From: Bacillota bacterium | GTDB lineage: Bacteria; Bacillota_I; Bacilli_A; RF39; UBA660 | NCBI GenBank assembly: GCA_023430885.1 | Contig: JAEYYH010000006.1 | Coordinates: forward strand, 5,615-69,614 | Direction: 5' to 3' | Length of the DNA stretch: 64,000 nt | Shown here: piece after piece, positions 9,729 through 46,408 of the stretch | How the letters are laid out: every line of letters starts with the position of its first letter | How positions within the stretch are numbered: position 1 is the first letter of the stretch | The notes under the pieces: model-generated | What the model was told of the DNA's origin: nothing | Seen by the model: the letters and a program-made list of their open reading frames with translations, nothing else | The model's database searches: none | Translations under genes and position numbers: made by a program

Positions 9729-10745
9729 ATGATTAAAGTAGCAATAAATGGTTTTGGTAGAATAGGGAGACTTGCATTTAGACAAATGTTTAAAGCAGAA
9801 GGATATGATATAGTTGCAATTAATGATTTAACTAGTCCTGATATGCTTGCACATTTATTAAAATATGATTCAGCACAAAAGAGATATGAAGGTCATAATG
9901 TTGTAGCAAAAGAGGATTCTATTATTGTAGATGATGAAGAAATTAAAATATATAAAGAATCTGATCCTAATAACTTACCATGGAAAGAGTTAGGCGTTGA
10001 TGTAGTACTTGAATGTACTGGATTCTTCTGCTCTAAAGATAAATCAATGGCTCATATTAATGCCGGAGCTAAATATGTTATTATTTCAGCACCAGCTGGT
10101 GATGATTTACCAACAGTAGTTTATGGGGTTAATGAAGGTATTATTACAGAAAATGATCACGTTATAAGTGCAGCTTCATGTACTACTAACTGTTTAGCAC
10201 CAATGGCTGACGTTTTAAATAAAAATTTTCCTATTGTAAGTGGTATAATGACAACTGTTCATGCTTACACAGGTGATCAAATGGTTCTTGATGGACCACA
10301 CCGTAAAGGTGATTTAAGAAGAGCAAGAGCAGCCGCAGCAAATATCGTTCCAAATTCAACAGGAGCAGCTAAAGCAATAGGTCTTGTTATTCCAGAACTA
10401 AAAGGAAAACTAATCGGTTCTGCACAAAGAGTTCCAGTCATTACAGGTTCAACTACTATTTTAGTAGCGGTTGTAAAAGCTAGTAATTTAACTGTTGATG
10501 TAATTAATGAAACAATGAAAAATGCAGCAACTCCATCATATGGTTATAATGATGAACAAATAGTATCATCAGATGTTATAGGAATAACTGAAGGATCACT
10601 ATTTGATGCTACGCAAACAATGGTAAGTAAAATAAATGATGAAACTTATCACGTTCAAGTAGTAGCTTGGTATGACAATGAAAATAGTTATACAAGTCAA
10701 ATGGTTAGAACTGTTAAATATTTAGGAAATTTAATCAATAAATAA
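9729..10745 (+). CDS. gapA: Glyceraldehyde-3-phosphate dehydrogenase, type I
   Basis: The N-terminus [14 protein letters not shown] and the catalytic SCTTNCLAP motif are present. Confidence 0.95.
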
Positions 10746-10767
10746 GGACTATAAGTCCTTTTTTTGT
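10745..10767 (+). terminator. Rho-independent terminator after gapA
   Basis: ggact-ataa-gtcc followed by T7. Confidence 0.65.
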
Positions 10768-10790
10768 TAATAATAATAAAGGGTGATAAT

Positions 10791-10952
10791 ATGAAAGAAA
10801 ATAAATCAATAAAATGTGATGTTGAAAGTTGTAAATATTGTAATGTTAAGAAAAATTATTGTGTTCGTTCATCAATAAAGGTAAGTAATTGTGATAAAGA
10901 TGAAGACGGTTTTAAAGAATTTACAATGTGTGACAGTTATAAAGAAAGATAG
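10791..10952 (+). CDS. Small Cys-rich protein (DUF1540-like)
   Basis: 53 aa with a CDVESCKYC...C...C...C pattern. Confidence 0.4.
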   Translation: MKENKSIKCDVESCKYCNVKKNYCVRSSIKVSNCDKDEDGFKEFTMCDSYKER

Positions 10953-11017
10953 AATCTTTCTTTTTATTTACTTATTATTTATAATGATCTATAATTGTTT
11001 TAGAGTAGGTGGATATA

Positions 11018-12448
11018 ATGAAAAATAAAAACGGTTTTACCTTAGTAGAAATATTAGGTGTCATTACAATTTTAAGTGTGCTTGCTTTAATAGCAATACC
11101 AACTATAGATAATATTGTAACTAAAAATAGAGAAAAACTATATGATTCACAAATTGAAACAATTGAAGATGGATTAAAAACATGGGCTGATGCTAATGCA
11201 ATGTATCTTCCAGAAGATGGAGATGACGGACTGTTATTATCACTTGGTATATTAAAATTATCAGGATTTGTAGATGAAGATATTAAAAATCCAAATACAA
11301 ATTTATGTTTTTCAAATAATATGATGGTTTCTATAGTGACCGTAAAAGAAGGATATGCATATTATGTTGACGAAGAAAGTGGACTTGATGGCACAGAAGA
11401 AGATTGCTCTACGCCTACAGTATCAGATTTTATATATTTAAAGGGCAGCAGTACTGTTACGTTGAATTTAAATGATACTTATGAGGAACCTGGATATATA
11501 ACTTTTGATTCTAATGGTAATATGGCAGCGGGTACTGTAACAAGTTTGATTAAGGATAGAAACGGAACTGTTGTAAGTTCTATTGATACTACTGAAAGTA
11601 GTAAAACACCATATACAATTACTTATACTTATGGTTCAGCTACAAGCATAAGAACAATTAATGTTTTAATTGCTGATCCTGTTGGGACAATATATGCTTT
11701 CGATTATATTGATCATGTTCAAATAATGACATTAAAAAGAGGAACATATAAACTTGAAGTATGGGGACCTAATGGTAGTGGTGTATATGGAGGAAAAGGT
11801 GGCTATTCTGCAGGAAATTTAACATTAGAAAATGACACTCAATTATATATTTATACTGGAGGAAGTAATGGATATAATGGCGGTGGTAGTCCAAATAATC
11901 CGGTAGGTCCTGCAAACGGTGGCGGCGGCGCTACGGATATTAGAATAGCCACAGACAGTCTTTATGCTAGAGTTATTGTTGCAGGTGGCGGTGGCGGTGG
12001 CGGACAATCCTCTGGAAATGGAGGCGTTGGTGGCGGGTTAACTGGTGCTAATGGTAGCGGTGGCGCAAATGGTGGATCACAAATTTTAGGTGGAAGTTCT
12101 ACATACTGTGGGACAACTGGAAAAGGTGGTTTTGGATCAGGCGGTTCTAGCGTTAGTTGTACTACAGCTGGTGGCGGTTCTGGCGGCGGCGGTTGGTATG
12201 GAGGTTCAACTGATTATTCAAACTATGGCGGTGGCGGCGGATCAGGCTGGATTTATACTGAAACTGCTTTTACTACATGGCAAACAGGAAATGGATCAGA
12301 TTCTGCAAACTGGCTTCTTAATAGTTCATACTATTTAGCTAATGCACAAACCATAGCGGGAAATGGAACAATGCCAACTCATGATGGTACTGGTACTATG
12401 ACAGGTAATAGTGGAAATGGTTATGTTAAAATAACGAAGATTAGTTAA
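11018..12448 (+). CDS. Prepilin-type (class III signal) protein with a glycine-rich C-terminal region
   Basis: The leader is MKNKNG|FTLVEILGV, with Phe at +1 and Glu at +5. The C-terminal half contains Gly-rich tracts (GGGGGGGQSSGNGGVGGG...). It is a paralog of the next gene. Confidence 0.8.
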   Translation: MKNKNGFTLVEILGVITILSVLALIAIPTIDNIVTKNREKLYDSQIETIEDGLKTWADANAMYLPEDGDDGLLLSLGILKLSGFVDEDIKNPNTNLCFSNNMMVSIVTVKEGYAYYVDEESGLDGTEEDCSTPTVSDFIYLKGSSTVTLNLNDTYEEPGYITFDSNGNMAAGTVTSLIKDRNGTVVSSIDTTESSKTPYTITYTYGSATSIRTINVLIADPVGTIYAFDYIDHVQIMTLKRGTYKLEVWGPNGSGVYGGKGGYSAGNLTLENDTQLYIYTGGSNGYNGGGSPNNPVGPANGGGGATDIRIATDSLYARVIVAGGGGGGGQSSGNGGVGGGLTGANGSGGANGGSQILGGSSTYCGTTGKGGFGSGGSSVSCTTAGGGSGGGGWYGGSTDYSNYGGGGGSGWIYTETAFTTWQTGNGSDSANWLLNSSYYLANAQTIAGNGTMPTHDGTGTMTGNSGNGYVKITKIS

Positions 12449-12471
12449 GAGATAGAAATATCTCTTTTTTA
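12448..12471 (+). terminator. Rho-independent terminator
   Basis: agagata-gaaa-tatctct followed by T6. Confidence 0.65.
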
Positions 12472-12510
12472 TTATTCTATTAAATGATATAATTATTATA
12501 GGTGAATAGT

Positions 12511-14004
12511 ATGAAAAATAAAAAAGGTTTTACCTTAGTAGAAATATTAGGTGTTATTACAATTCTGAGTGTACTTGCGTTGATTGCAATACCAACTATA
12601 GATAATATAGTAACCAAGAATAGAGAAAAACTATATGATTCACAAATCAAAACAATTGAAGATGGATTAAAAACATGGGCTGATGCTAATGCAATGTATC
12701 TTCCAGAAGATGGAGATGACGGACTGTTATTATCACTTGGTATATTAAAATTAGCTGGATTTGTAGATGAAGATATAAAAAATCCTAATACAAATTTATG
12801 TTTTTCAAATGATATGATGGTTTCTATTGCAGCAGTAAAAGAGGGCTATACGTATTATATTGATGAAGAAAGTGGACTTGATGGTACAGAAGAAGATTGC
12901 TCTGTACCTACAGCAACCGATTTTATATATTTAAAAGGTAGTAGTACTATTAACTTATCATTGGATAGTTCTTATGAAGAACCAGGTTATTTAGCCTTAA
13001 ATAGTAGTGGAAATATAGTAACATCTCAAGTTACTACTTTAATAAGAGATAAAAATAGTCAAATAGTAAGCTCTATAGATACAAGTGAGGATACGGCATC
13101 ACCTTATACAATAACATATACTATTGGTGAAGTGTCAAAGACTCGTACTATTATAGTCAAAATAGGTGATCCTGTGGGTACTATATATACCTTTGATTAT
13201 ACAGGAACTAAACAAACAATTACTTTAGGGAAAGGCAGTTACAAATTAGAAACTTGGGGTGCTCAGGGGGGAAAAAGCACATATTCTAATACTAATATTT
13301 GGTTAGGGGGATATGGTGGTTATTCAAAAGGAGAATTAACTTTTGGAGTAGATACTGTTTTCAATATATATGTAGGTGGTGCAGGAGCGGATAAACAAAC
13401 ACTATCAACTATATTAGGTGGATTCAATGGTGGTGGAAATAGTGGAACAAGTACATCATCATATCCAAATATAGGTGCAGCTGGTGGTGGTGCCTCAGAT
13501 ATTAGAATGAATGGCGAAGAACTTTCTAACAGAATAATTGTAGCAGGTGGCGGTGGTGGTGCTGGCTATGGTTCAAATGCTGGCACAGTTGCTAGTCCTG
13601 AAATAAATTCTGGTGGTCCAGGTGGTGGAAGTACTGGTTTAAGTGGAATATATTATCCTGGATATCAATTGCGTATGGGAGCACCAGGAACTCAATCAGC
13701 CGGTGGCGCTGGTGGAACTGGAGGCTCATCAACTAATGGAAATCCAGGAATCTTAGGTCAAGGTGGTGCAGGAGCAAATGGTACTGCTGGTGGTGGCGGC
13801 GGTGGCGGCGGTTATTATGGCGGCGGCGGCGGTGCTAATGGTAGCGGTTGCGCAGGTCCGGGTGGCGGTGGTTCTGGATATATTGGAACTTTAACTAATG
13901 CTCAAACCATAGCGGGAAATGGAACAATGCCAACTCATGATGGGACTAGTACTATGACAGGTAATAGTGGCAATGGTTATGTTAAAATAACAAAGATAGC
14001 TTAA
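12511..14004 (+). CDS. Prepilin-type protein with a glycine-rich region (tandem paralog)
   Basis: Leader MKNKKG|FTLVEILGV. The first roughly 130 aa and the last roughly 35 aa are near-identical to the 11018 gene. The middle is a divergent Gly-rich tract. Confidence 0.8.
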   Translation: MKNKKGFTLVEILGVITILSVLALIAIPTIDNIVTKNREKLYDSQIKTIEDGLKTWADANAMYLPEDGDDGLLLSLGILKLAGFVDEDIKNPNTNLCFSNDMMVSIAAVKEGYTYYIDEESGLDGTEEDCSVPTATDFIYLKGSSTINLSLDSSYEEPGYLALNSSGNIVTSQVTTLIRDKNSQIVSSIDTSEDTASPYTITYTIGEVSKTRTIIVKIGDPVGTIYTFDYTGTKQTITLGKGSYKLETWGAQGGKSTYSNTNIWLGGYGGYSKGELTFGVDTVFNIYVGGAGADKQTLSTILGGFNGGGNSGTSTSSYPNIGAAGGGASDIRMNGEELSNRIIVAGGGGGAGYGSNAGTVASPEINSGGPGGGSTGLSGIYYPGYQLRMGAPGTQSAGGAGGTGGSSTNGNPGILGQGGAGANGTAGGGGGGGGYYGGGGGANGSGCAGPGGGGSGYIGTLTNAQTIAGNGTMPTHDGTSTMTGNSGNGYVKITKIA

Positions 14005-14026
14005 GAGATAGAAATATCTCTTTTTA
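14004..14026 (+). terminator. Rho-independent terminator (duplicated with the gene)
   Basis: The same agagata-gaaa-tatctct hairpin is present, followed by T5. Confidence 0.6.
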
Positions 14027-14066
14027 ATTTTACTAATAAATGCTATAATTAATATAGGTGAAGTAT

Positions 14067-14429
14067 ATGAAAAATAAAAAAGGATTTACATTAATAGAAA
14101 TAATAGCAGTTATTGTTTTAATAGCAGTTATATCTTTAATAGTCTTTGTAAGTGTTACTGCTATGATAAAAAACAATAAGGTTAAACAACTAAAAGTATT
14201 TAGTGATAATTTAACTAATGCAGCAGAAGTTTATATGACTGATAAAAAAGATGCTTTTTCTAATTTTGATGAAGTGGGTGATATAACTATTATTAGTTCA
14301 TCTGAAATGATAAATGCCGGTTACATAAATAAAAATATGGATAATCCTACTGGAAAAGACCTAACTGATTTTTATGTAAAAGCAACAATTAAGGAAGATA
14401 AATCTATTTCTTATGAAGTTGTAGGATAA
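14067..14429 (+). CDS. Small prepilin-type pilin/pseudopilin
   Basis: Leader MKNKKG|FTLIEIIAV. At 120 aa it has the size of a minor pilin or ComGC-like protein. Confidence 0.8.
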   Translation: MKNKKGFTLIEIIAVIVLIAVISLIVFVSVTAMIKNNKVKQLKVFSDNLTNAAEVYMTDKKDAFSNFDEVGDITIISSSEMINAGYINKNMDNPTGKDLTDFYVKATIKEDKSISYEVVG

Positions 14430-14513
14430 GTACTATGTCAAATAGTGCTTTTTTCTTGCACCAAACCATTAAAAAATGTATAATGTTTATAGAATACAAT
14501 AAGGAGACAAATA

Positions 14514-15698
14514 ATGAAAAGAACAATTAGAGATTTTGATTTAGATGGAAAAAAGGTAATTATTAGAGTAGATTTTAATGTTCCTATTAAAGATGAGGTC
14601 ATTACTGATGATAATAGGATAAGAGAAAGTTTAGAAACAATTAACTATGCACTTTCTAATAATGCTAAGGTTATACTTTTATCTCATTTAGGTAGAGTAA
14701 AGACAGAAGCAGATAAAGCTATTAATACTTTAGAACCTGTTGCACTTAGACTTAGTGAACTTCTTGACAAAGACGTAGTTTTTGTTACTGAAACAAGAGG
14801 GGACATTCTTGAAGATGAAATAAGTAATATGAAAACTGGTGAAGTCATCTTAGTAGAGAATACTAGATTTGAAGATATAGATGGTAATAAAGAAAGTGGC
14901 AATGACCCAGAACTTGGTAAATACTGGGCATCACTTGGTGACATTTATATTAATGATGCATTTGGTACAGCTCATAGAGCGCATGCTTCTAATGTAGGTA
15001 TTGCTTCTAATTTACCAAATGGTATTGGATTCTTAATTGAAAAAGAATTAGATAATTTAGAAAAAGCTATAACTAATCCAGAAAGACCATTTACTGTAAT
15101 ATTAGGTGGTTCTAAAGTTAGTGATAAAATTGGTGTAATTGAAAATTTAGTTAAGATTGCTGATCATATATTAATAGGTGGTGGAATGGCTTTTACATTT
15201 TTAAAAGCCAGTGGTCTTCCAATAGGAGCTTCATTATTAGATGAAGAAAACTTAGATTTTTGTAAAAAAATGCTTGCTGAACATGAAGATAAATTAATTC
15301 TTCCAATAGATGTTGTTTGCAGTACTAGCATTAATGAAGGTACTCCTTGTAGAGAATGTTTTATAAATGATATCAAAGAAAATGAACTTGGTCTTGATAT
15401 TGGTAGAGGAAGTATAAAAGTATTTAAAGAAATACTACAGTCAAGTAAGACTATTGTATGGAATGGACCGGTAGGAGTATTTGAACAAGAAGCATATGCT
15501 GGCGGAACAAAAGCGCTATGCGAGGTTCTAAGTAATTTAGATGCTACTACTATACTTGGTGGTGGTGATACTGCAAGTGCTGCTATTAATTTTGGATATA
15601 AAGATAAGTTTAGCCACATATCAACTGGTGGTGGAGCTAGTCTTGAACTTTTAGAAGGTAAAGTACTTCCTGGAATTGCTATAATAGATGAGAAATAG
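14514..15698 (+). CDS. pgk: Phosphoglycerate kinase
   Basis: 394 aa. The motifs RVDFNVP, GGGMAFTF and GGGDTA are present. Confidence 0.95.
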   Translation: MKRTIRDFDLDGKKVIIRVDFNVPIKDEVITDDNRIRESLETINYALSNNAKVILLSHLGRVKTEADKAINTLEPVALRLSELLDKDVVFVTETRGDILEDEISNMKTGEVILVENTRFEDIDGNKESGNDPELGKYWASLGDIYINDAFGTAHRAHASNVGIASNLPNGIGFLIEKELDNLEKAITNPERPFTVILGGSKVSDKIGVIENLVKIADHILIGGGMAFTFLKASGLPIGASLLDEENLDFCKKMLAEHEDKLILPIDVVCSTSINEGTPCRECFINDIKENELGLDIGRGSIKVFKEILQSSKTIVWNGPVGVFEQEAYAGGTKALCEVLSNLDATTILGGGDTASAAINFGYKDKFSHISTGGGASLELLEGKVLPGIAIIDEK

Positions 15699-15706
15699 GT
15701 GATATT

Positions 15707-16972
15707 ATGAGAATTGGTATATTTACTGATACTTATCCTCCATATATAAATGGTGTGTCTACAAGTGTAGCTATGCTTGAAACAGCGTTAAAGAAACAAG
15801 GCCATCAAGTATATATAGTTACTGTTAATAATGAAAAAATGCAGTATAAGTATGAAAATGAAGACCATATAATTAGAATACCTGGTGTTCCAATAGGAAT
15901 ATATGACTATCGTTTAACAGGAGTATATCCTTTAAAAGCTGTTAGTAAGATAAGAAAGTGGAATCTTGATGTAATTCATTCTCAAACAGAGTTTGGTGTA
16001 GGTTCTTTTGCAAGAATTATTGCAAAACAATTTAATATTCCACTTGTTCATACATATCATACGATGTACGAAGATTATGTACATTATATAACAAAGGGAT
16101 ATTTTAATGGTCCAAGTAAAAAGATAGTTGAATATTTAACAAATTTTTATTGTGATCAGACAGCCACTGAACTTATAGTGCCTACAAAAAAAACGTATGA
16201 CTTATTTAAAAATAAGTATCATTATACGCGCAATGTTCATATAATACCAACTGGTATTGAAGTTGAAAGATTTTATGAAGAAAATTTTGATAAAAAAGAA
16301 CTTGATGAACTTAGAGCGAGTATAGGGCTTTCTAAAGACCAGTTTACTACATTATTTGTAGGTAGACTTGGTAAAGAAAAAAGTATTGAAATATTAATTG
16401 AGTCTCATAAAGACTTAGTTAAAAAATATAATAATAAACTTATTATAGTGGGTGATGGGCCTGATATGGAACATTATAAAAATATGACTGAGAAATTTGG
16501 TATCAGTGACAGTGTAATATTTACTGGCAAAGTACCTTGGGTAGAAGTTACAAAGTATTATCAATTAGCTGATATATTTGCAACAGCATCACGTTCTGAA
16601 ACACAAGGTCTAACAGTAATAGAGGCTATGGCAGCTTCACTTCCTGTAGTAGCAGTAGATGATGAAAGTTTTAGAAATGTTGTTATAGATGGATTAAATG
16701 GTTATCTATTTGATACAAAAAAAGAGTATAAAGAATATGTTGAATCATTTATTAATGATCCAGTAAAATTAAAACGTTTTAGTAAACAAGCAAGAATTAA
16801 TGCTGATCAATATTCTTCAAAATATTTTGCAGAAAGAGTTCTTGATGTTTATCAAATAGCAATTGATAGTAGTCCACTCCACAAACAAGACAAAACAATT
16901 TATAATGGTTTTGTTGAAACAATAAGGAAAACACTGAAGGGAGTATTTCATGGAAAAGATAGTAGTAGCTAA
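15707..16972 (+). CDS. GT4 glycosyltransferase, glycosyl-diacylglycerol (membrane glycolipid) synthase-like
   Basis: The N-terminus MRIGIFTDTYPPYINGVSTSV resembles alMGS/CpoA-type GT4 enzymes. It has an EX7E-type GT-B C-terminal half. Confidence 0.65.
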   Translation: MRIGIFTDTYPPYINGVSTSVAMLETALKKQGHQVYIVTVNNEKMQYKYENEDHIIRIPGVPIGIYDYRLTGVYPLKAVSKIRKWNLDVIHSQTEFGVGSFARIIAKQFNIPLVHTYHTMYEDYVHYITKGYFNGPSKKIVEYLTNFYCDQTATELIVPTKKTYDLFKNKYHYTRNVHIIPTGIEVERFYEENFDKKELDELRASIGLSKDQFTTLFVGRLGKEKSIEILIESHKDLVKKYNNKLIIVGDGPDMEHYKNMTEKFGISDSVIFTGKVPWVEVTKYYQLADIFATASRSETQGLTVIEAMAASLPVVAVDDESFRNVVIDGLNGYLFDTKKEYKEYVESFINDPVKLKRFSKQARINADQYSSKYFAERVLDVYQIAIDSSPLHKQDKTIYNGFVETIRKTLKGVFHGKDSSS

Positions 16973-17681
16973 TTTAAAGATGAATTTAACAGTTACACAG
17001 ATTAGTAACTATCTTGAAGACATTAAAGAAGTAATGAATTCTAAAAAAGTAGTTATATGTCCAACAAGTATTTACCTACCTTATTTTTTAAAAAATAAGT
17101 ATTCAGTAGGTATTCAAAATATAGCTGCAACTGAAGAAGGAGCGTTTACTGGTGAAGTAAGTGCAAGTCAAGTAAGTAGTATGGGAATTAAGTATGCTAT
17201 TGTAGGGCACAGTGAAAGAAGACAACTATTTAATGAAACAGATACAATAATTAATAAGAAAGTTTTACTTGGTATTAAAAACAACTTAACTATAATATTA
17301 TGTATTGGTGAAACTAAAGAAGAAAAAGACATGCTTAAGACAGACAAAATTTTAAAAAGACAACTTATTAATGATTTAAGAGATATAGATATTATAGATA
17401 TTAAGAATATTATTATTGCTTATGAACCAATTTGGTCGATAGGTACAGGTAATGTTCCAGAAAACAAAGAAATCAGTATAATTACTAAGTATATAAAAGG
17501 CATAGTAAATAATTTATATCATGAAGATATAGATATTCCTGTTTTATATGGTGGTAGTGTTAATGAGAAAAATATTGAAGAATTAAATGAGATAAAAGAG
17601 ATCTCTGGGGTTTTAGTTGGTGGCGCATCACTAAAAGCTGATAAATTACAAAAAATTAAGGAAGTTATTATAAGTGAATAA
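16950..17681 (+). CDS. tpiA: Triosephosphate isomerase
   Basis: The motifs AYEPIWSIGTG, YGGSV and GGASLK are present. The sequence is divergent but clear. Confidence 0.85.
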   Translation: MEKIVVANLKMNLTVTQISNYLEDIKEVMNSKKVVICPTSIYLPYFLKNKYSVGIQNIAATEEGAFTGEVSASQVSSMGIKYAIVGHSERRQLFNETDTIINKKVLLGIKNNLTIILCIGETKEEKDMLKTDKILKRQLINDLRDIDIIDIKNIIIAYEPIWSIGTGNVPENKEISIITKYIKGIVNNLYHEDIDIPVLYGGSVNEKNIEELNEIKEISGVLVGGASLKADKLQKIKEVIISE

Positions 17682-18559: not shown

Positions 18560-18643
18560 CTACTTTTTTTAATTTGACTAAATATCATCTTTGTGTTAAT
18601 ATATGCCCTATCAAAACTCTATGACTTTGAAGGGGTGAGTAGT

Positions 18644-19885
18644 ATGGAATTTAGTTATGAAATGGCATTTCTTTTGGACGATAATTTAAACAAATTAAAT
18701 AGACCTCGTAATATATCTATTATGTCGCCTGAATTTTGTGAATTTACTAAATCAGAATTAAGTAGCATTGAATATTTAGAAATAAAGAACATGAACAGCA
18801 TTAATGAATTAATATTTTTACCTAATTTAAGAAGTTTAGCAATTATAAGTGAAGACTATGATAGAATTATAAGTGATGAATCTTTAGATTATAATACTTT
18901 TATTAATCATATAAAAGATTTTTCGGTTATTTCAAAATTAAGAAATCTAGAAAACTTATTTATTCTACACGATATTAATTTAGAAGAACTTGATATTAGT
19001 CCTTTAAAAAAATTAAAGAAGATTAAATTAATTGATAATCCTTCTTTTAAAAGATTAAAAGGTCTAGATAACTTAGAAAAATTAAAAGAAGTAGTTATAT
19101 ATGGAAATAATTTAGAAAGTGGACTAGATATAGACAAGTATATTTCTAATACAATGTCAACATCACCAAATATATTAGATATAAAAATGTATAACAAAAT
19201 AGTTAATGGTAATGTAAACATGGCAAAAATTTTAGGAGATCAATATATACTAGGCTTAACATTTTTAAAGTTTGCTGAGAAAAATGGTTTTGTTGATTTA
19301 ACTATTTTAGATAATCGTAACTTAGCAGAAATGTTTACAAAACTTAATCAATTCTTTGAAAGAAATAAAATGTATGAACGTTCAGAATATGAAAAAGTTT
19401 TATTTGCTTTCTCTTATGTAACACGTAATGTTAGATTTGGTGAAGATGAGTTAAGAAAACGTATGGATAGATATTATGAAATAATTTCTGAAGTAAGAGA
19501 GATCCCAAAATATATGGAAAAGAATTTTGCTTCTTTGCATAGTAGTTATAATGCTTATCATTTTAAATTAGCTAACTGTGAAGGAATAGTTAATTTAATG
19601 GCATTCATGCTAGATATGCTTAAAGTAGAAAATGTAAATGTTCATTGTAGTGATAGAAGAATAGACGGAATGAATGGAACTAATCATTCCATGTTAAGAG
19701 TAAAAGTAGATGGACAGTGGTATTACTGTGATCCGACATATGATACAAAAAAACCAGTGCAATATTTCATGTTAACAAAAGATGAAATCAGCGAAATACA
19801 CCAGTTAAGTTCTTACGAGAATAAAATAGTTGGAGATAAAACAGATGGAAAGACTAATACACAACATTATAAAAGAAGAAAATAG
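18644..19885 (+). CDS. LRR-like N-terminal plus transglutaminase-like cysteine protease domain protein
   Basis: The N-terminal half has LxxLxxL repeats. The C-terminus has a Cys...His...Asp triad context (ANCEGIVNL ... TNHSML ... WYYCDPTYD). Start taken at MEFSYEM after a GGGGTGA RBS. Confidence 0.5.
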   Translation: MEFSYEMAFLLDDNLNKLNRPRNISIMSPEFCEFTKSELSSIEYLEIKNMNSINELIFLPNLRSLAIISEDYDRIISDESLDYNTFINHIKDFSVISKLRNLENLFILHDINLEELDISPLKKLKKIKLIDNPSFKRLKGLDNLEKLKEVVIYGNNLESGLDIDKYISNTMSTSPNILDIKMYNKIVNGNVNMAKILGDQYILGLTFLKFAEKNGFVDLTILDNRNLAEMFTKLNQFFERNKMYERSEYEKVLFAFSYVTRNVRFGEDELRKRMDRYYEIISEVREIPKYMEKNFASLHSSYNAYHFKLANCEGIVNLMAFMLDMLKVENVNVHCSDRRIDGMNGTNHSMLRVKVDGQWYYCDPTYDTKKPVQYFMLTKDEISEIHQLSSYENKIVGDKTDGKTNTQHYKRRK

Positions 19886-21356
19886 TATAGTTGATAATTA
19901 TTTATCAAAAGAAGAAAAAGAAGAGTATTTAAAAATTATAAATGGTATAAAAACTGAACATCTTTATAAAAGTAAAATACATGGTCTTTTTCATAGTGAG
20001 AAAGTTTGCCTTTTTGCGTTTATAATAGCAAAAAGATTAAAGCTAAATGATATTGATATGCAGATTATTATTGATGCTGCTCTTTATCATGATATAGGAA
20101 GACAAAATGATACTAATGATTCAATTCATGGTTATGCATCAGCTTATCGAATTGATAGGGTATTAGATAATGTAATCTATGAAGATGAAGAAAATTTAAA
20201 CATGTTAAAAGCAATTATAGATAGTCACTCAGTTGATGACGAACACAGTAATAATTCTTTCGGTTATTATTTTGATTATGAAGGTGACAAAGGGCTAATA
20301 GATGGGCCTATATACGATCGCTTTATTAGATTAAATAATATTTTAAAAGATGCTGATGGTTTAGATAGAAACAGGTTTGTAGATGGCTATTGTTTTGGTT
20401 TAGATGAAAGATTTTTAAGATTACCTGAATCTAAAAAATTAATTGAGTTATCAAGAGAAATAAATGACTTATATACAGATAATTATGCTAAAGAAGTTGA
20501 CTTAAAAAGAGTAAAAGGTGCATATAACAAATGTGTTCATGGAATAGGTTTTGATTTCTTTAAAATGAGATCTATTCTTGAAAACGGTATATTATCAGCT
20601 TCCACTTTACGTGATAAAAAAATAGAAGGTGTTAAAAACTTTAATGGTGGTAATACGCGTAATTGGATATCAGTTGTTGATGAATCTTTAATTGATAAAG
20701 GATATACTGGGTTTGAAACGTTTATTAAAAATAGTATAAACTTTAAGTGTAGTGAACAGTTCCTAGTTGAACCTATGACATATGGTGAACGTTCTGTTGC
20801 TATGGAAAAAGGTTTGCCTTATAATAAGAGTGATCATAAAGATGAAAGATATGTATATAAGGAAATATTACCAGAAAATATTGACGGTATTGTGCTATTT
20901 AAAGCAGCAGCAAGTAAGAGGATAGATGAGGCTGTATTTCTATTTAATTGTCTAGATTATAGAACTTTCTTATCACGAGTAAGTTATTATGTAGAAATGA
21001 CAAATGCTGAAGAGTTAGGCTATAGCAAAGAAAAATTAGGTACTTGTTTATTAGAATATAAAATAGAGTTAGATAAATATAATGACTGTAAATTTGCTAA
21101 TATCCCATGTGATGGTCAAAAACTAGTTTTAAATTTAACTGCGATACTAAATAAAATAAATACTATAATAATACAGATGATTAAAAAGTATTATTGTAGT
21201 GAAATGAAAACTGATGCTAACGAGCTTACTATAATGGATATAGTTGCATATGAATTAGCAAAAACAGGTAAAGAATATAGCTCAGTTATAACGGAAGAAC
21301 AAATTATATTTATGCCTAGTGAAAAGGTTAAAAGAATATTTAGCAATCTCTCTTGA
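19845..21356 (+). CDS. HD-domain phosphohydrolase-like protein with a large uncharacterised C-terminal region
   Basis: The HD motif LFHSEKV...LYHDIGR is present. The gene overlaps the end of the upstream gene by about 40 nt. Confidence 0.5.
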   Translation: MERLIHNIIKEENSIVDNYLSKEEKEEYLKIINGIKTEHLYKSKIHGLFHSEKVCLFAFIIAKRLKLNDIDMQIIIDAALYHDIGRQNDTNDSIHGYASAYRIDRVLDNVIYEDEENLNMLKAIIDSHSVDDEHSNNSFGYYFDYEGDKGLIDGPIYDRFIRLNNILKDADGLDRNRFVDGYCFGLDERFLRLPESKKLIELSREINDLYTDNYAKEVDLKRVKGAYNKCVHGIGFDFFKMRSILENGILSASTLRDKKIEGVKNFNGGNTRNWISVVDESLIDKGYTGFETFIKNSINFKCSEQFLVEPMTYGERSVAMEKGLPYNKSDHKDERYVYKEILPENIDGIVLFKAAASKRIDEAVFLFNCLDYRTFLSRVSYYVEMTNAEELGYSKEKLGTCLLEYKIELDKYNDCKFANIPCDGQKLVLNLTAILNKINTIIIQMIKKYYCSEMKTDANELTIMDIVAYELAKTGKEYSSVITEEQIIFMPSEKVKRIFSNLS

Positions 21357-23637: not shown

Positions 23638-24741
23638 ATGAAAAAAAGAGGTTTTACATTAATAGAATTACTGGCAGTAATTTTAATCCTTGGTATAATT
23701 GCATTAATTGCAATACCTATAGTAAATAAAATAATAAAAGAAAGTAGAAGAGGTGCATTTGAAACAACTGCAAATAATATAGTAGGTGCGATAGAAGATG
23801 CATGCCAGCTTCAAGTTTTAAAGGGTGAAACGATAACAACAAGTTATAACTTTGCAAATGGTATAGTAACACCAGCCCTAAATGTCAAAGGAAAATTACC
23901 AACAACTGGAAAAGTAACTGTTAATGGTGATTGCGACATAACACTTAATGTAAATAATGGGGTATATTCAGCAACAAAAGAATACGATGAAGAAAATGTT
24001 ACAATAGTAGACGGTGTAGTTCCGCTTTCATATTCAGTATATGCTAATGGAACAGCAGTATATTTTAATCCAGAAACAGGAACAAGATGTACAGCCGGAG
24101 AAGCTGTAAGTACAACAGGAACAAAAACAGGATGTATGAAATGGTATGCATTTAATGATAGTGGTGGAAGTGAAGCCCCTACAATTAATTTAATTTTAGA
24201 TCATAATACAACTGCTGTAGTAGCATGGAATTCTACAGGAAGTAATGTAAGTGGTCCAACAAATGTTATGACGCAACTTGTATCTGATACTAGTTCATGG
24301 GCAGGAGTACCTACAAGATCTGATAATTATAATGTAAGTAATGGAACATCAACTTATACAATAAATTATAGTACATATAAAGCTAGGCTAATGACAGCAG
24401 CAGAGGTGGCTGCAATATCAAGTAATTCTAGTTTTGCAGAAGCAACAACATCATATACAAACTGGTTTTATTTAGATAGTAATAATCAAACACAAACTGC
24501 AACATCAACTGGAGCAAGTAGTTATGATTGGTTATTTGATTATACAAATGGCTGTGCTAGTTACGGATGTAATGTAGCAGATGCAAGTACTTATGGATAC
24601 TGGACATCTACATCTGTTTCAGGTAATAATAGTCGCACTTGGTTTGTTGGTAGAGGCGGCTACTTAGACAATCTTGATGTAGTTTATGGAGATAGATATG
24701 GTATCCGTCCAGTTATAACTGTGTCAAAAAACAAACTATAA
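23638..24741 (+). CDS. Prepilin-type protein with a DUF1566/lectin-like C-terminal domain
   Basis: Leader MKKRG|FTLIELLAV. The C-terminus YWTSTS...TWFVGRGGYLDNLDVVYGDRYGIRPVITV fits the DUF1566 / Fib_succ_major pattern as recalled. Confidence 0.75.
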   Translation: MKKRGFTLIELLAVILILGIIALIAIPIVNKIIKESRRGAFETTANNIVGAIEDACQLQVLKGETITTSYNFANGIVTPALNVKGKLPTTGKVTVNGDCDITLNVNNGVYSATKEYDEENVTIVDGVVPLSYSVYANGTAVYFNPETGTRCTAGEAVSTTGTKTGCMKWYAFNDSGGSEAPTINLILDHNTTAVVAWNSTGSNVSGPTNVMTQLVSDTSSWAGVPTRSDNYNVSNGTSTYTINYSTYKARLMTAAEVAAISSNSSFAEATTSYTNWFYLDSNNQTQTATSTGASSYDWLFDYTNGCASYGCNVADASTYGYWTSTSVSGNNSRTWFVGRGGYLDNLDVVYGDRYGIRPVITVSKNKL

Positions 24742-28414: not shown

Positions 28415-29407
28415 GTGTTAATACTAGCCAAAGCGATGCTTGCAATGATGATAGGTTTTATTTCATCAGTCATTTTTGGCCTTATTTTAATTCCTATATT
28501 AAAAAGAATTAAAATAAAACAAAAAGTAAGCATATATTTAGAGAACAAACATAAACAAAAAGACGGTACTCCAACTATGGGAGGCCTTATATTTATAATA
28601 CCAACTATTTTTGCTGTAATAGTATTACTTATTATGGGGAGAATTCATTTTAGTGAAAACTTATTTATTGTATTATTTGTATTTTTAGCATATGGGTTAT
28701 TAGGTTTTGTGGATGACTATTTAAGCATAAAAAGACATAATAATGAAGGTTTAACTGAGATACAAAAATTATTTGGTCAATTAGTTATTGCATTAGTATT
28801 TTTCTATATATTTATGAAAACGGGAAATGAACCATCATTAAATGTTCATACACTTGGATTTAATATTAATATGGGCTGGTTCTACGGCATATTCTTATTA
28901 TTTATATTAGTAGCAAGCTCTAATGCTGTTAATTTAACAGATGGACTTGATGGACTTGCAGGAGGTTTATCTGCTATAGCATTTTTAGCTTTTGGACTTA
29001 TTGCTTGGAATTCAACATATACAGCAGGATATCAAGATTTAGCAATTTTCTGTTTTGTCTTAATGGGATCACTTTTAGGGTTCTTGGTATTTAATACGCA
29101 TCCTGCAAAAATATTTATGGGAGATACAGGATCACTTTCTTTGGGTGGTACCCTTGCTTCAATAGCAATTCTTACTAACCACGAAATAACTCTTATTGTT
29201 GTAGCAGGTGTATTCATTATAGAAACATTAAGTGCTATTATTCAAATGACAGGAATTATGATGTTCCATAAGAAAATTTTTCTAATGGCACCACTTCACC
29301 ATCATTTTGAAAAAAAGGGTTATAGTGAAAGTGATATAGTTAAAGCATTTTGGATAGTTGGTTTATGTTTAGCAACTGCGGCAGTTGGCTTTGGTGTTTG
29401 GATTTAA
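28415..29407 (+). CDS. mraY: Phospho-N-acetylmuramoyl-pentapeptide transferase
   Basis: 330 aa polytopic protein with the conserved NAVNLTDGLDGLA and MGDTGSL motifs. Confidence 0.9.
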   Translation: MLILAKAMLAMMIGFISSVIFGLILIPILKRIKIKQKVSIYLENKHKQKDGTPTMGGLIFIIPTIFAVIVLLIMGRIHFSENLFIVLFVFLAYGLLGFVDDYLSIKRHNNEGLTEIQKLFGQLVIALVFFYIFMKTGNEPSLNVHTLGFNINMGWFYGIFLLFILVASSNAVNLTDGLDGLAGGLSAIAFLAFGLIAWNSTYTAGYQDLAIFCFVLMGSLLGFLVFNTHPAKIFMGDTGSLSLGGTLASIAILTNHEITLIVVAGVFIIETLSAIIQMTGIMMFHKKIFLMAPLHHHFEKKGYSESDIVKAFWIVGLCLATAAVGFGVWI

Positions 29408-29432
29408 AGAAGATTGTATCTTCTTTTTTTTG
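29405..29432 (+). terminator. Rho-independent terminator after mraY
   Basis: aagaagat-tgt-atcttctt followed by T9. Confidence 0.65.
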
Positions 29433-29480
29433 TCGTATCGTGTTATAATTATCATAATAATATACGGAGGTTGCGTAAAT

Positions 29481-31568
29481 ATGAAGAATAAAGGTTTTAC
29501 ATTAATTGAACTACTAGCAGTAGTTATGGTACTGGGGATTATAGCTATTATTGCGGTTCCTTCTATTAACGGTTTACTTGATAAAAGTAAAAAAGACACA
29601 TTGTTTGCAACAGCAAATAATTTAGTAGATACAGCTAAACAGTATTATATGAATAATGTACTTGTGAATGATGGATTAGCTAGCCCTGTATCACTTAGTG
29701 TTACAGATAGTGCTAATATGGATCTACTTGATTATAGTGGCAAATTACCATCAAGTGGCTATATATTAGTGGATACTTCTGGTAATATAGGTATAGCCGT
29801 ATCACAGGGTGATTACTGCGCAACAAAAGAGTTGTGGAATGATGAAGTGGTTGTTTCATCTCGTTCTAACTGTGAAATAACAAGTGTAGAAAAACTGGAA
29901 GAAATCAATAATTCTTGCTTTATATTAAATGATGAGAAAAATACTATAGTTGATTATAAAATAACTGATACTAATTGTCCTAAGGATATAGTTATTCCGG
30001 CTGAAATAGGTGGTCATGAAATTGTCGCTATCGGTGATGGTGCTTTTGCAGGAAATGGTCAACTAGCTGGATTATACGCTAAAGATTTAGACTCAGAACC
30101 TTATTTTGACATAGTTGAAAACGCATCATTTTATAAATATGGCCCTTTTGAAATGTTGGTTATTAATCCTGATATTATAACTACAAAAAGATGCTATTTT
30201 AAATATTCACCAGGTTACGATACTGTTCCATTAGATTATGTGTTAACTTCTAGTGATCCATATTCAGGATGTAATATAAGAGGCGCATTTATGGCGGCAG
30301 TCACTGATGATGCACCTGTAAATATTAATAATAATGTTACTCTAGCTGGAGCAGGAAATGGTCTTAATAACACTATGTCTCTTCTTCCAAACCAAAATAC
30401 AAACAATGACATAGGTATGCAGCAAATAGCTATGATTGAGAATCCAATGGTTCAATCTTATGGTATAACAAGTGTTAATTTTAGTTTAGCAACTAATTTA
30501 ACTTCAATAGGGACAGGAGCATTCTTAAGAAATAATTTAACATCTATTACATTTTCAAGTAATAATGCAAATATTTCTAATATAGGAGCAGGAGCTTTTT
30601 CTAGTAATAGGATAACGGGGACATTAGATTTAAGTGATTTGTCTAGCTTGAAAAATATATTGCCTCAAACTTTTAGTGGAAATATCATAACAAATGTAAT
30701 TTTTCCTTTAGGATTAGAAAATATCGGTGATTTTGCATTTTCTGAAAATAGTATGACATCTTTATCATTACCAACTTCAATAAGAACAATTGGTCTAGTA
30801 GCTTTTGAAGAAAATAATCTAGAGAGTTTAGACTTTTCAACTTTACCAAACTTAACATCCATTAGCGATTATGCATTTGGTGAAAATGCATTAACAACAG
30901 TTAAATTACCTAGTTCACTTACTACAATAGGCGAAGAGACTTTTGGTGATAATTTATCTTTATCAACAATTTCTATTGAAAATGAATATAACGCTATAGC
31001 TGGTGCACCTTGGGGAGCTTCTTCTGCTACAGTTGTTTGGACATTAGCATCAAAATACAGTATATCTTATAGTGGAAGTGAAGCTACAATAGGAAATAGT
31101 TGTTTGAGTGATGGTAATTATTTTGAGCACTGCATTGTCAACTTAAATTCAGTAGATAATAGTAAAACAATTGCTGGTTTTAAATTAAATGGAGCGACAG
31201 TTTATGGAAACACATTTGAAATGCCTGGATATAATGTAACAATCACGGATATTATTTTGACAGATTATGTTATATTGGAAAGTAGTCATCCATATTCCGA
31301 CAGTATGGATCAAACTTATACAGCGACAATACCTGAAGCGACAAAAATAAGGGTTGAATTTAGCGCTGATGTATCGTTAGAAAGTGATTATGATTACATA
31401 TATATTACAGATGCACTAGGAAATCAAGTAGGAGATTCCAGCTATACAGGTACAACATTAGCTAATCAAATATTTACTATAGATGGTAATGTTGTAAATA
31501 TTAGATTAACTACAGACGGCTCGGTTACCGAATATGGTTTCTTAGCTAAAGTAGTTATTGCAGAATAA
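29481..31568 (+). CDS. Large prepilin-type protein with BspA-type LRRs and a C-terminal CUB-like domain
   Basis: Leader MKNKG|FTLIELLAV follows a GGAGG RBS. The middle has repeated ~23-aa (ns)Lt(st)(iv)x(il)Pxs(il)xxIGxxAFxxN units. The last ~190 aa are homologous to the C-terminus of the 55978 gene. Confidence 0.8.
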   Translation: MKNKGFTLIELLAVVMVLGIIAIIAVPSINGLLDKSKKDTLFATANNLVDTAKQYYMNNVLVNDGLASPVSLSVTDSANMDLLDYSGKLPSSGYILVDTSGNIGIAVSQGDYCATKELWNDEVVVSSRSNCEITSVEKLEEINNSCFILNDEKNTIVDYKITDTNCPKDIVIPAEIGGHEIVAIGDGAFAGNGQLAGLYAKDLDSEPYFDIVENASFYKYGPFEMLVINPDIITTKRCYFKYSPGYDTVPLDYVLTSSDPYSGCNIRGAFMAAVTDDAPVNINNNVTLAGAGNGLNNTMSLLPNQNTNNDIGMQQIAMIENPMVQSYGITSVNFSLATNLTSIGTGAFLRNNLTSITFSSNNANISNIGAGAFSSNRITGTLDLSDLSSLKNILPQTFSGNIITNVIFPLGLENIGDFAFSENSMTSLSLPTSIRTIGLVAFEENNLESLDFSTLPNLTSISDYAFGENALTTVKLPSSLTTIGEETFGDNLSLSTISIENEYNAIAGAPWGASSATVVWTLASKYSISYSGSEATIGNSCLSDGNYFEHCIVNLNSVDNSKTIAGFKLNGATVYGNTFEMPGYNVTITDIILTDYVILESSHPYSDSMDQTYTATIPEATKIRVEFSADVSLESDYDYIYITDALGNQVGDSSYTGTTLANQIFTIDGNVVNIRLTTDGSVTEYGFLAKVVIAE

Positions 31569-36071: not shown

Positions 36072-36530
36072 ATGAAGAAAAATGGGTTTACATTGATCGA
36101 ATTATTAGCAGTTATCTTAATTTTAGGTATCATCGCATTAATAGCTATACCAACAGTTAATAATATTATTCAACAATCTAGATTAGGTGCTTGGGAAACT
36201 ACAGGAAATAACATGACTGATAGTGCTGAAGCATACTACCAAATGTGTGAAATCAGAGATGGTAAAGAAGCAGATGGAACTACTGATTGTAACTTAACTG
36301 GATTAGCTGCTTTAGATGAAGCTGCATTAAAGAGTAGACTTAACATCAAAGGAGATATCCCATCTGGTGCTGAAATAGCTTATTTCGGATTTACTACTGC
36401 AGGAGATGCTGTATTAAGTTTTAATACTGGAAGTTTCAGTTGTTCTAATGGTACACAAGGTGGAACATCACCAGATTTTACTTACACATTGACTGCTGGC
36501 GATGGCGCAATGGTTTGTACAAAATCTTAA
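36072..36530 (+). CDS. Type IV pilin (candidate major pilin)
   Basis: Leader MKKNG|FTLIELLAV. The size (152 aa), a C-terminal Cys pair (CSNG...MVCTKS, a D-region-like disulfide loop), and a consensus promoter plus strong RBS all fit a major pilin. Confidence 0.8.
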   Translation: MKKNGFTLIELLAVILILGIIALIAIPTVNNIIQQSRLGAWETTGNNMTDSAEAYYQMCEIRDGKEADGTTDCNLTGLAALDEAALKSRLNIKGDIPSGAEIAYFGFTTAGDAVLSFNTGSFSCSNGTQGGTSPDFTYTLTAGDGAMVCTKS

Positions 36531-45179: not shown

Positions 45180-46022
45180 TTAGAACCCCATTTCAGTTTT
45201 GTACTGGATTGGGGTTTTATAGTTTAAAGAATAAGCTAATCTTTCATTATTATAATAATCTATGTATGTTCTTATAAATTCATCAAATGATGAATAACTA
45301 TCAATGTCGAAATCACTTTGAATTTCATCTTTTATCCAACCGTTGATCGATTCCATTTTTGGATTATCTGTTGGAGTTCCAGCTCGCGACATTGAACGAA
45401 TTATGTTATAATCTTTATGTGCGTTTGTAAACGCCATTGAAGAGTAGACTACACCCTGATCACTATGCAAGGTTGAAGGGTAATCTATTCTTTTTATTTT
45501 GTCTAAATACGGAAATAATCCATCATAATATGGTTTTATTGAATTGTGTTTATTTGTATAACCATATGAAATTATTTCATTATTAAATGCATCCAAATAT
45601 AAAGCTGTATCATAAAGTTCTGTACGATATTTAATACATGTCATATCTGTACATACTTTTTCTAATGGTTTAGTTGCTTTCCAATTATTTTTAATAATAT
45701 TTGAATACAAAATATGCTCTTGTCCAGGGTTTTTATATTTGTAACTTCTTACTGCTGATTTAATGTTTAAATACTTACAGCATTTATGGACTAGATTATC
45801 TGAAATGAGCCATCCTATATCTTTTCTTATCTGCCTATTTATGTGTCTATATCCCCATGATTTATGCTTTGTATGATATTCATTAACTAATAAACATAAT
45901 TGTTCTCTGTCTAATTGGTATTGTCTTTTTATGTCTTTGTTATTTAACCATTTATAATAACCACTCCTTGATACTTCCATATATACACATAAAGATTTTA
46001 TATTAAATTCTAATTTTAGCAT
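45180..46022 (-). CDS. IS3-family transposase OrfB (DDE integrase core)
   Basis: 280 aa with an rve-type catalytic region (HSDQGVVYSS ... ESINGWIKDE). Confidence 0.8.
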   Translation of the reverse strand: MLKLEFNIKSLCVYMEVSRSGYYKWLNNKDIKRQYQLDREQLCLLVNEYHTKHKSWGYRHINRQIRKDIGWLISDNLVHKCCKYLNIKSAVRSYKYKNPGQEHILYSNIIKNNWKATKPLEKVCTDMTCIKYRTELYDTALYLDAFNNEIISYGYTNKHNSIKPYYDGLFPYLDKIKRIDYPSTLHSDQGVVYSSMAFTNAHKDYNIIRSMSRAGTPTDNPKMESINGWIKDEIQSDFDIDSYSSFDEFIRTYIDYYNNERLAYSLNYKTPIQYKTEMGF

Positions 46023-46027
46023 ATTAA

Positions 46028-46408
46028 CTATTTCATATTCTTCTTCGATAAATTTATGAATTGTTTTTCTAGACCAACTCCTTTCACCGTGTAACCTTTT
46101 TTTAATCTTTCATTCTCCACTCTTAATTTCATAAGTTCATATTGTAATTCTTCAATATCTGTTCGATTCTTTTTTCTGTTTAGACCGCCATATGGAGAAC
46201 CCGGCTTCTTCTTATTAATTAATCCTTCTTCTCCTTGTTCAATATATTTTTTTATCCATAAATGTGCTTGTCCCGGATTAATTCCTTCTTCTTTTGAAAT
46301 AATGCTTAAGCTATTTTCTTGATTCATGATTCTTTTTACTATTCTTAATTTTTCTTCTTTCGACCAATATTTATTATCTCTAGTTGCTTTACCTTTAGTT
46401 CTTCCCAT
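46028..46408 (-). CDS. IS3-family transposase OrfA (HTH)
   Basis: 126 aa with a helix-turn-helix followed by a leucine-zipper-like region. It ends just upstream of orfB in the -1 frame arrangement. Confidence 0.8.
   Translation of the reverse strand: MGRTKGKATRDNKYWSKEEKLRIVKRIMNQENSLSIISKEEGINPGQAHLWIKKYIEQGEEGLINKKKPGSPYGGLNRKKNRTDIEELQYELMKLRVENERLKKGYTVKGVGLEKQFINLSKKNMK

Follow-up and report, generated by a model that had tools for sequence, protein, structure and literature searches.

Predicted modular type IV pilins with exchangeable glycine-rich domains in tandem between gap and pgk of an uncultured Bacillota bacterium

Two long glycine-rich genes lie in tandem between the glycolytic genes gap and pgk of a Bacillota bacterium (GTDB lineage RF39; UBA660), on a stretch of 64,000 nucleotides of contig JAEYYH010000006.1 (assembly GCA_023430885.1, positions 5,615 to 69,614) that is referred to here as the window and whose numbering is used throughout. 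The two genes, termed copy 1 and copy 2, are alike at both ends and unlike in the centre, which raises the question of what kind of protein they encode and by which process the centres came to differ. A preliminary description, made from the letters of the DNA alone, regarded them as pilin paralogs with a hypervariable (GGN)n core that would be diversified by recombination or by slipped-strand mispairing. The best overall explanation is that both genes encode modular type IV pilins whose central domains are replaced by recombination as whole cassettes, a reading that is considered probable. The view of an unstable glycine repeat would thereby be replaced by that of a folded binding domain which is carried on a pilin and exchanged between strains as a cassette.

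The pilin module and its glycine-rich payload

Both open reading frames (ORFs) are on the + strand and begin with a prepilin leader of the form MKNK(N/K)G-FTLVE. The leader of both copies is a class III signal peptide (MKNKNG-FTLVEILGVITILSVLALIAIP) in which a short basic segment ending in glycine is followed by a hydrophobic stretch of ~20 aa with a glutamic acid residue at +5 (GFxxxE). Both copies match the prepilin families PF07963 (30.6 bits for copy 1 and 31.9 bits for copy 2, cut-off 21.2) and TIGR02532 (23.7 and 24.5 bits, cut-off 16.3). The NCBIfam equivalog models of specific pilins such as ComGC, GspG and PilA cover the N-terminal ~60 aa only and score far under their cut-offs (27.9-29.2 against 88.85 for GspG, 25-27 against 75 for ComGC). 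In the AlphaFold2 (AF2) model of copy 1 an α1 helix spanning aa 9-59 and strands at aa 72-75, 103-109 and 112-117 make up a predicted pilin fold, with predicted local distance difference test (pLDDT) values of ~75-89. It is followed by an immunoglobulin (Ig)-like sandwich at ~aa 138-217 and then by a C-terminal domain.

The C-terminal domain is a glycine-rich domain (GRD) of the family PF12810 (ALK_LTK_GRD), which is matched over nearly its full length by copy 1 (136.1 bits, profile positions 3-242 of 243) and copy 2 (122.1 bits, positions 1-242 of 243) against a cut-off of 24.5. The GRD of copy 1 is modelled with a pLDDT above 90 in most 10-residue blocks, the mean for the whole model being 86.8, and the top 21 Foldseek matches in the PDB are all ALK/LTK structures. 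The predicted fold is a tumour necrosis factor (TNF)-like β-sandwich with a glycine-rich lattice, as it occurs in the part of ALK and LTK that binds the ligand and in the receptor-binding tips of certain phage tail fibres, and the motif A(T/S)DIR...R(V/I)IVAGGGGG, to which the preliminary description had drawn attention, is kept in both proteins. With PF07963 and PF12810 in a single polypeptide, the two proteins correspond to modular pilins, which are defined as an N-terminal pilin module joined to an extra domain that is not specific to type IV pilus biology (Raynaud et al. 2021, PMC8179133). The combination IPR012902-PF12810 is listed without comment for three proteins (2+1) in Dataset S1 of that study (PMC8179133), and no study of a pilin-GRD protein turned up when the literature was searched for PF12810, polyglycine II adhesins and glycine-rich domains with pilins.

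The GC-rich repeats that had been quoted do exist, as ggtggcggtggcggtggcgg at 11984-12003 and as GGC/GGT runs at 13789-13847, and they stand as described in AT-rich surroundings (window GC 28.7%), but they are very short. The longest perfect repeats are (GGTGGC)3.3 with 20 nt (unit 6, 3.3 copies) and (GGC)4.7 with 14 nt (unit 3), and the glycine codons are a mixture of GGT, GGC and GGA. The GC content of the Gly-rich region is 44%, for which its 28-31% of glycine codons account, and a foreign origin of the GC-rich segment is unneeded. In an alignment of 20 pilin-GRD proteins the Gly tracts are in register (GGxGGYS, GGFNGGG, GGGATDIR, RxIVAGGGGG, GGxGGG, GGTQxxGG, FGxGG, GGGGGWYGG and GGGGSG), mean conservation within the GRD is 0.78 in Gly columns and 0.56 in non-Gly columns, and all large insertions fall between the tracts. 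The proposed hypervariable core is therefore inverted, since the glycine columns are the conserved ones. A conserved fold of the Gly-rich region had been named in advance as the finding that would speak against a variable core, and for the Gly tracts such a fold is indicated by the ALK_LTK_GRD profile together with the ALK-like model. The tracts are the conserved scaffold of the domain and presumably form polyglycine-II helices packed in a lattice.

These observations bear directly on slipped-strand mispairing, by which changes in the length of the (GGN)n tracts would vary a surface domain. The GGT/GGC-rich runs and the difference in length between divergent alleles are what such a process would leave behind, but the repeats are short and of mixed codons, the tracts belong to a predicted folded domain, and indels lie outside them. 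Furthermore, 52 sequences from different, independent samples fall into eight clusters of near-identical alleles (≥90% identity, between 1 and 68 variable columns in each cluster), and not a single full-length member contains an internal indel. The locus thus lacks the features of a simple-sequence-repeat contingency locus, with 0 internal indels in 52 alleles and tracts of 20 and 14 nt at most, and slippage as the source of the diversity is hardly credible.

Conserved ends and replaced centres

The first ~330 nt of the two copies are 93.0% identical (307/330) and include an exact run of 104 nt (11157-11260 = 12650-12753), as had been reported. A run of this length is improbable given the 36 mismatches in 420 nt (permutation p = 0.0008). 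The 3' ends are also alike, but not to the extent of the ~95% over the last ~130 nt that had been given; identity depends on the length compared, with 83% for the last 130 nt, 88% for 120 nt and ~92% for the final 114 aligned nt. The terminators are indeed identical, as the stop codon and hairpin form an exact 25-nt repeat (12445-12469 = 14001-14025), and the internal halves do differ in length and sequence, with 50-60% nucleotide identity in a gapped alignment.

Synonymous divergence (dS) between the copies follows the same pattern. It is 0.32 in the pilin module (92% nucleotide identity) and 0.23 in the last 40 codons, and reaches 1.35 both in the Ig-like segment (65% nucleotide identity) and in the GRD segment. 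The ends therefore share a far more recent ancestry than the centre, and this difference in dS, in combination with an identical non-coding terminator, indicates mosaic ancestry and not uneven purifying selection. The pilin modules and tails of the two window copies are mutual closest relatives (92% nucleotide identity) and resemble each other no less than they do the orthologous positions of the closely related locus L082, which is consistent with homogenisation of the ends by intragenomic conversion.

An old duplication followed by point mutation only, in which strong purifying selection on the pilin module and on the last strands kept the ends alike, would agree with a ratio of nonsynonymous to synonymous divergence (dN/dS) that is lowest in the pilin module (0.06-0.18) and with the genus-wide conservation of the N-terminal module. 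Selection on the protein leaves several facts aside: synonymous divergence itself differs ~4- to 6-fold between ends and centre, the terminator that is identical is non-coding, orthologous positions with 95-99% identical flanks carry cassettes of saturated dS with sharp breakpoints, and chimeric alleles exist. An origin by duplication and point mutation is highly improbable, and a model of purifying selection alone was ruled out by the dS profile.

The orthologous positions were compared across syntenic loci that share the order gap, DUF1540, large pilin(s), small pilin, pgk, GT4 glycosyltransferase, tpiA and spo0A. Seven such loci, the window included, contain ten large pilin genes with largely distinct cassette types, and two further ones (L089 and L090) come from a sister species; L001 and L086 represent the window's own sequence and do not count as independent evidence. 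The flanks of the six relatives are 94-96% (L082), 90-94% (L087), ~90% (L088), ~89% (L083), 87-90% (L084) and ~84% (L002) identical to those of the window. The number of large pilin genes at syntenic loci is one or two, with two in L082 and L083 and one in L084, L087, L088 and L002. A search of genome contigs with copy 1 returned mostly unrelated pilin N termini and only one true syntenic relative, L002. A search of metagenome contigs with the pilin module returned one close locus, L094, the remainder being generic marine pilin N termini. L094 (Ga0074193) is 100% identical to L082 (Ga0272380) over 10.4 kb, the two entries being from two JGI metagenome data sets whose independence is not established.

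Between the window and L082, identity drops from ~95% to 45-70% over 11429-12280, which comprises the Ig-like segment and GRD of copy 1, and recovers thereafter, with sharp edges. The same drop to 45-70% is seen over 13181-13900 in the GRD of copy 2. L089 and L090, from two strains of the sister species, have flanks of 98.5-99.0% and pilin modules of 96-99% identity, and it is across the GRD alone that identity falls, to 39-63%. Their lineage contains at least five GRD allele classes behind N-terminal 215 aa that are 90-94% identical, and a more divergent sixth, P0017, at 73-76%. The second copies of L082 and L083 share a GRD type (84% nucleotide identity) though their genomes otherwise differ by ~11%, whereas the closest genome pair differs completely.

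Chimeric alleles, which the preliminary description had predicted, were found in two forms. In L091, where gap is ~94% identical, the gene in first position has a promoter region and first ~250 nt of copy-2 type (27/29 informative sites) on a body of copy-1 type, whereas P0128 and P0136 combine the body of P0011 with a foreign C-terminal segment of ~65 aa that is joined at a GGGGGSGWIYT tract. Flank-level identity of the ends, a saturated centre, sharp breakpoints and mosaic alleles, the marks of allelic cassette replacement, are thus all present, and the proposal that conserved flanks around a variable centre reflect recombinational diversification of a probably surface-exposed domain is borne out. 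At the level of sequence, the diversity is shown to arise by homologous recombination and not by repeat slippage.

The payload varies beyond the GRD family. The gene P0018 (L088, 8001-9386) has the same pilin and Ig-like modules, and its C-terminal module is not a GRD but a wholly different Cys-/Trp-rich segment of ~240 aa with no Pfam match; as it occupies the same chromosomal position, the locus can host unrelated payloads. A 681-aa homolog, P0066, has an N_methyl leader, BspA-type leucine-rich repeats (LRR_5) and a C-terminal GRD in one chain, which shows that payload modules are not only swapped but also combined. An extra prepilin-type gene encoding 306 aa follows the small pilin in L083 (7438-8358), and a gene for a Na/Ca-exchanger membrane protein is inserted between the large and small pilins in L002 (9702-10652).

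Recombination of a more specialised kind is known from pilE and pilS of Neisseria, and by analogy one of the copies might act as a donor cassette from which the other is frequently converted inside a single clone. The two tandem copies have highly similar ends, the 104-nt exact run and the low dS of the ends indicate conversion between copies, and L091 unites a 5' end and a body of different type. Nevertheless, the conversion that can be detected homogenises the conserved ends and does not move the variable segments, and each copy is complete and equipped with a promoter-like box, a Shine-Dalgarno sequence, a start codon and a terminator of its own. There are only two copies, with no further GRD-coding DNA in the 64-kb window, several relatives have a single one, and the Ga0272380 and Ga0074193 entries do not differ at all over the length given above. 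A single expression locus accompanied by promoterless, 5'-truncated silent cassettes was not found within the window, and programmed antigenic variation is very unlikely. Replacement of cassettes between strains in modular pilins is the reading that is followed below.

Layout of the locus and further prepilin-type genes

The features of the locus are collected in Table 1. It is bounded by gap (9729-10745) and a small DUF1540 ORF on one side and by pgk (14514-15698) on the other, with three + strand pilin genes in between. A helical insert is present in the GRD of copy 1 and absent from that of copy 2 according to the alignment.

Table 1. Features of the pilin locus and their positions in the window (scores of copies 1 and 2 are given in the text)
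Feature	Position	Strand	Evidence
Promoter-like site 5' of copy 1, TTTACT-17-TATAAT (predicted)	10967-10995	+	Consensus scan, 10/12 matches
Shine-Dalgarno sequence of copy 1, AGGTGG	11007-11012	+	Direct reading
Copy 1, probable modular type IV pilin, 476 aa	11018-12448	+	ORF; PF07963; PF12810; AF2
Copy 1 pilin module, aa 1-135, conserved 5' block (class III signal peptide, α1 helix, small β-sheet head)	11018-11422	+	TIGR02532; AF2
Copy 1 Ig-like β-sandwich linker domain, aa 136-224, allele-variable	11423-11689	+	AF2 strands 138-217; PF16403 weak, sub-cut-off
Copy 1 TNF-like and glycine-rich domain (ALK_LTK_GRD), aa 225-476	11690-12445	+	
Swapped cassette, core of the copy 1 GRD region	11690-12325	+	
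Conserved 3' block of copy 1, last ~40 codons	12326-12445	+	
Intrinsic-terminator-like hairpin and U run after copy 1	12447-12472	+	Fold -7.9 kcal/mol, z -2.3; 8-bp stem
Extended -10-like box TGaTATAAT and Shine-Dalgarno sequence AGGTGA of copy 2 (predicted)	12486-12505	+	Direct reading; comparison of three upstream regions
Copy 2, probable modular type IV pilin, 497 aa	12511-14004	+	ORF; PF07963; PF12810; alignment
Copy 2 pilin module	12511-12915	+	
Copy 2 Ig-like segment	12916-13182	+	
Copy 2 GRD	13183-14001	+	
Terminator-like hairpin after copy 2	14003-14027	+	Exact repeat; fold z -2.8
Small pilin, 120 aa, pilin module alone, no payload	14067-14429	+	PF07963 32 bits
Terminator-like hairpin after the small pilin, upstream of pgk	14428-14456	+	Fold -9.0 kcal/mol, z -2.8

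The small pilin shares 28% identity with the pilin module of copy 1 (E 5e-9) and is kept at every syntenic locus (L082-L090); it is a candidate for a major pilin or a partner pilin. All three genes have a TATAAT box and an AGGTG(G/A) Shine-Dalgarno sequence upstream and a short hairpin with a T run downstream, and the small pilin gene is preceded by nearly the same string as the -10-like box and Shine-Dalgarno sequence of copy 2. The AT-rich hairpins escaped a consensus terminator scan and were assessed by folding instead. Judged by these signals, both copies look independently expressed.

The glycolytic cluster gap-pgk-tpiA (9729-17681) is split in two places: gap is separated from pgk by the pilin genes, and pgk from tpiA by a gene for a GT4 glycosyltransferase (15707-16972). 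Both interruptions are kept across the genus-level set of loci. Downstream of spo0A lie two overlapping ORFs, 18593-19885 (430 aa) and 19830-21356 (508 aa), without a Pfam match at 1e-5. They are conserved in syntenic loci, and the second has a weak HD-domain match in some relatives.

Five further prepilin N_methyl genes are present in the window, at 23638-24741, 29385-31568, 36072-36530, 43254-45110 and 55978-58428, which together with copy 1, copy 2 and the small pilin gives at least eight prepilin-type genes in 64 kb. The five are scattered among housekeeping genes (mur ligases, a leuS-like tRNA synthetase, hrcA-grpE-dnaK-dnaJ and pyk), and three of their products (727, 618 and 816 aa) have BspA-type LRR_5 modules. 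A transposase pair of the IS3 family (HTH_Tnp_1 and rve, 45180-46408, - strand) lies directly downstream of the LRR pilin gene 43254-45110, and GC skew is locally inverted at 44-47 kb.

A scatter of at least eight apparently monocistronic N_methyl genes, three of them with BspA-type repeats, and the lack of pilus machinery genes nearby would also fit a prepilin leader that is an export and membrane-anchor signal only, with class III signal peptides as a general route for displaying surface adhesins that are never polymerised, as in some archaea. On the other hand, the pilin module is modelled as a complete pilin head and not as a mere leader, a payload-free small pilin is always adjacent, and modular pilins are incorporated into filaments in Streptococcus sanguinis (PMC8179133). 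Display by anchoring only is unlikely, and it would alter the mode of display without altering the mechanism of variation.

Phage relatives of the glycine-rich domain

Outside the pilin group, the best matches to the GRD are proteins of 570-830 aa with one to three GRDs and no signal peptide. The gene for one of these GRD-only homologs, P0046, has neighbours that match PHROGs of tail fibres and tails, and a GH25-CHAP endolysin is encoded a short distance downstream. Four PHROG families, all of unknown function, are matched by the GRD itself. For several pilin GRD alleles, phage-type GRDs (62-66% identity) are no more distant than any other pilin GRD, which suggests that the pilin and phage domains are drawn from a shared pool.

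Two GRD proteins, of 828 and 813 aa, are encoded in a prophage-like tail region of L092 (10001-17372). A faint match links the second of them to a radical-SAM-target Cxxx repeat family, and its gene is followed by a radical SAM enzyme gene, which hints at post-translational modification of this tail-fibre-region protein.

Two phage receptor-binding proteins are relevant to the likely role of such domains. In cyanophage Pam3, gp24 forms a TNF-like and glycine-rich tip that recognises the receptor, its Gly stem being conserved and its distal end hypervariable (PMC9608196). In gp38 of T-even phages the conserved glycine-rich motifs make up a polyglycine-II core and the hypervariable segments are the binding loops, and it has been proposed that modules are shuffled by recombination with these Gly motifs as hot spots (PMC12032242).

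A bolder extension would regard the TNF-like/glycine-rich module as a mobile receptor-binding cassette that is common to prophage tail fibres and host pilins in these gut-type sporulating Bacilli, so that bacteria display phage-style receptor-binding domains and exchange the cassettes with phage genes. The conserved Gly motifs and C-terminal strands would then be the anchors for recombination with phage genes, and the domains, displayed on pili or on prepilin-anchored surface proteins, could bind cell-wall glycopolymers that are targeted by phages, in inter-bacterial adhesion or as a decoy. This extension is doubtful at present; if it were true, the ancestral ligand binding of the metazoan ALK/LTK domain would become accessible to study in the bacterial and phage proteins.

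Proposed display, significance and comparison with known systems

It is proposed that the two modular pilins are cleaved by a prepilin peptidase and are then displayed on a type IV filament or anchored by their α1 helix, in which case they may act as strain-specific adhesins. By analogy with gp38 and Pam3 gp24, the surface that binds the ligand would be formed by the segments between the Gly tracts, which differ from allele to allele. Cassettes that comprise either Ig+GRD or the GRD are replaced as a whole among strains, between two anchors for recombination, the conserved pilin module at the 5' side and, at the 3' side, the last ~40 codons with the terminator, the promoter and the next pilin gene. 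These homologies also allow the tandem copies to undergo gene conversion and unequal exchange, and this accounts for the homogenised ends, the chimeras and the arrays of one or two copies.

Several observations weigh against parts of this proposal. Genes for the type IV pilus machinery (a GspE/PilB assembly ATPase, a PilC platform protein or an A24 prepilin peptidase) were not found among the annotated ORFs of the 64-kb window, and for this reason filament assembly is only inferred. Both the binding function and the ligand are likewise assigned by analogy. In the GRD core dN/dS is 0.3-0.45 at saturated dS, and positive selection is not demonstrated. The relationship of pilin and phage GRDs comes from a comparison of best hits and not from a phylogeny, and a tblastn search of 50,697 phage genomes with the GRD returned nothing, probably through low-complexity masking of the Gly-rich query.

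Modular pilins and hypervariable adhesin loci with conserved recombination anchors are already known, and the advance is therefore incremental unless phage-pilin exchange or a ligand is demonstrated. What is noteworthy is the payload of ALK and phage receptor-binding type, its replacement at strain level and the fixed position inside a glycolytic gene cluster. For pilus biology, an uncharacterised payload would be added to the repertoire of modular pilins, in little-studied uncultured low-GC sporulating Bacilli of a lineage that carries unusually many prepilin-type surface proteins. For phage-host biology, the findings suggest that phages and hosts employ one and the same binding scaffold. For annotation, they illustrate that GC-rich GGN runs in AT-rich genomes can be the scaffolds of polyglycine-type domains and not contingency repeats.

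The closest parallel is provided by PilB and PilC of S. sanguinis (PMC8179133, PMC9934059), in which a class III signal peptide and a small pilin module are likewise linked to a bulky module not specific to type IV pili, a von Willebrand factor A (vWA) module in PilB and a lectin module in PilC. They are of similar size (~50 kDa) and have a predicted role as filament-displayed adhesins. Here, in contrast, a TNF-like/glycine-rich domain follows an Ig-like spacer as the payload, and this payload is uncharacterised on any pilin. The genes are tandem, monocistronic and located between gap and pgk instead of in a pil operon, and the payload is replaced between strains, which has not been reported for PilB or PilC.

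Like pilE/pilS of Neisseria and the allelic pilin groups of Pseudomonas and Dichelobacter, the present genes combine a conserved N terminus with a C-terminal region that varies by homologous recombination. Unlike in the Neisseria system, silent promoterless cassettes are absent from the window, the units replaced are whole domains of 700-850 nt and not mini-cassettes, and the variation is seen between strains and not shown within a clone.

The phage tips (Pam3 gp24, Bxb1 gp33 and T-even gp38) resemble the GRD in that conserved Gly motifs provide the scaffold and the variable segments between them set the specificity, and the closest non-pilin homologs of the GRD sit in a prophage tail-fibre module. 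Here the domain is carried on a bacterial pilin that is chromosomally fixed between housekeeping genes, and gp38, which has a different overall fold (a β-helix and polyglycine-II sandwich), is an analogue and not a demonstrated homologue. The extracellular region of ALK and LTK (PF12810; PDB 7lrz, 7nx1 and 7mzy) contains the same domain family, which in the bacterial host is fused to a pilin and not to a receptor kinase, has no EGF-like domain and no known cytokine ligand, and is highly polymorphic.

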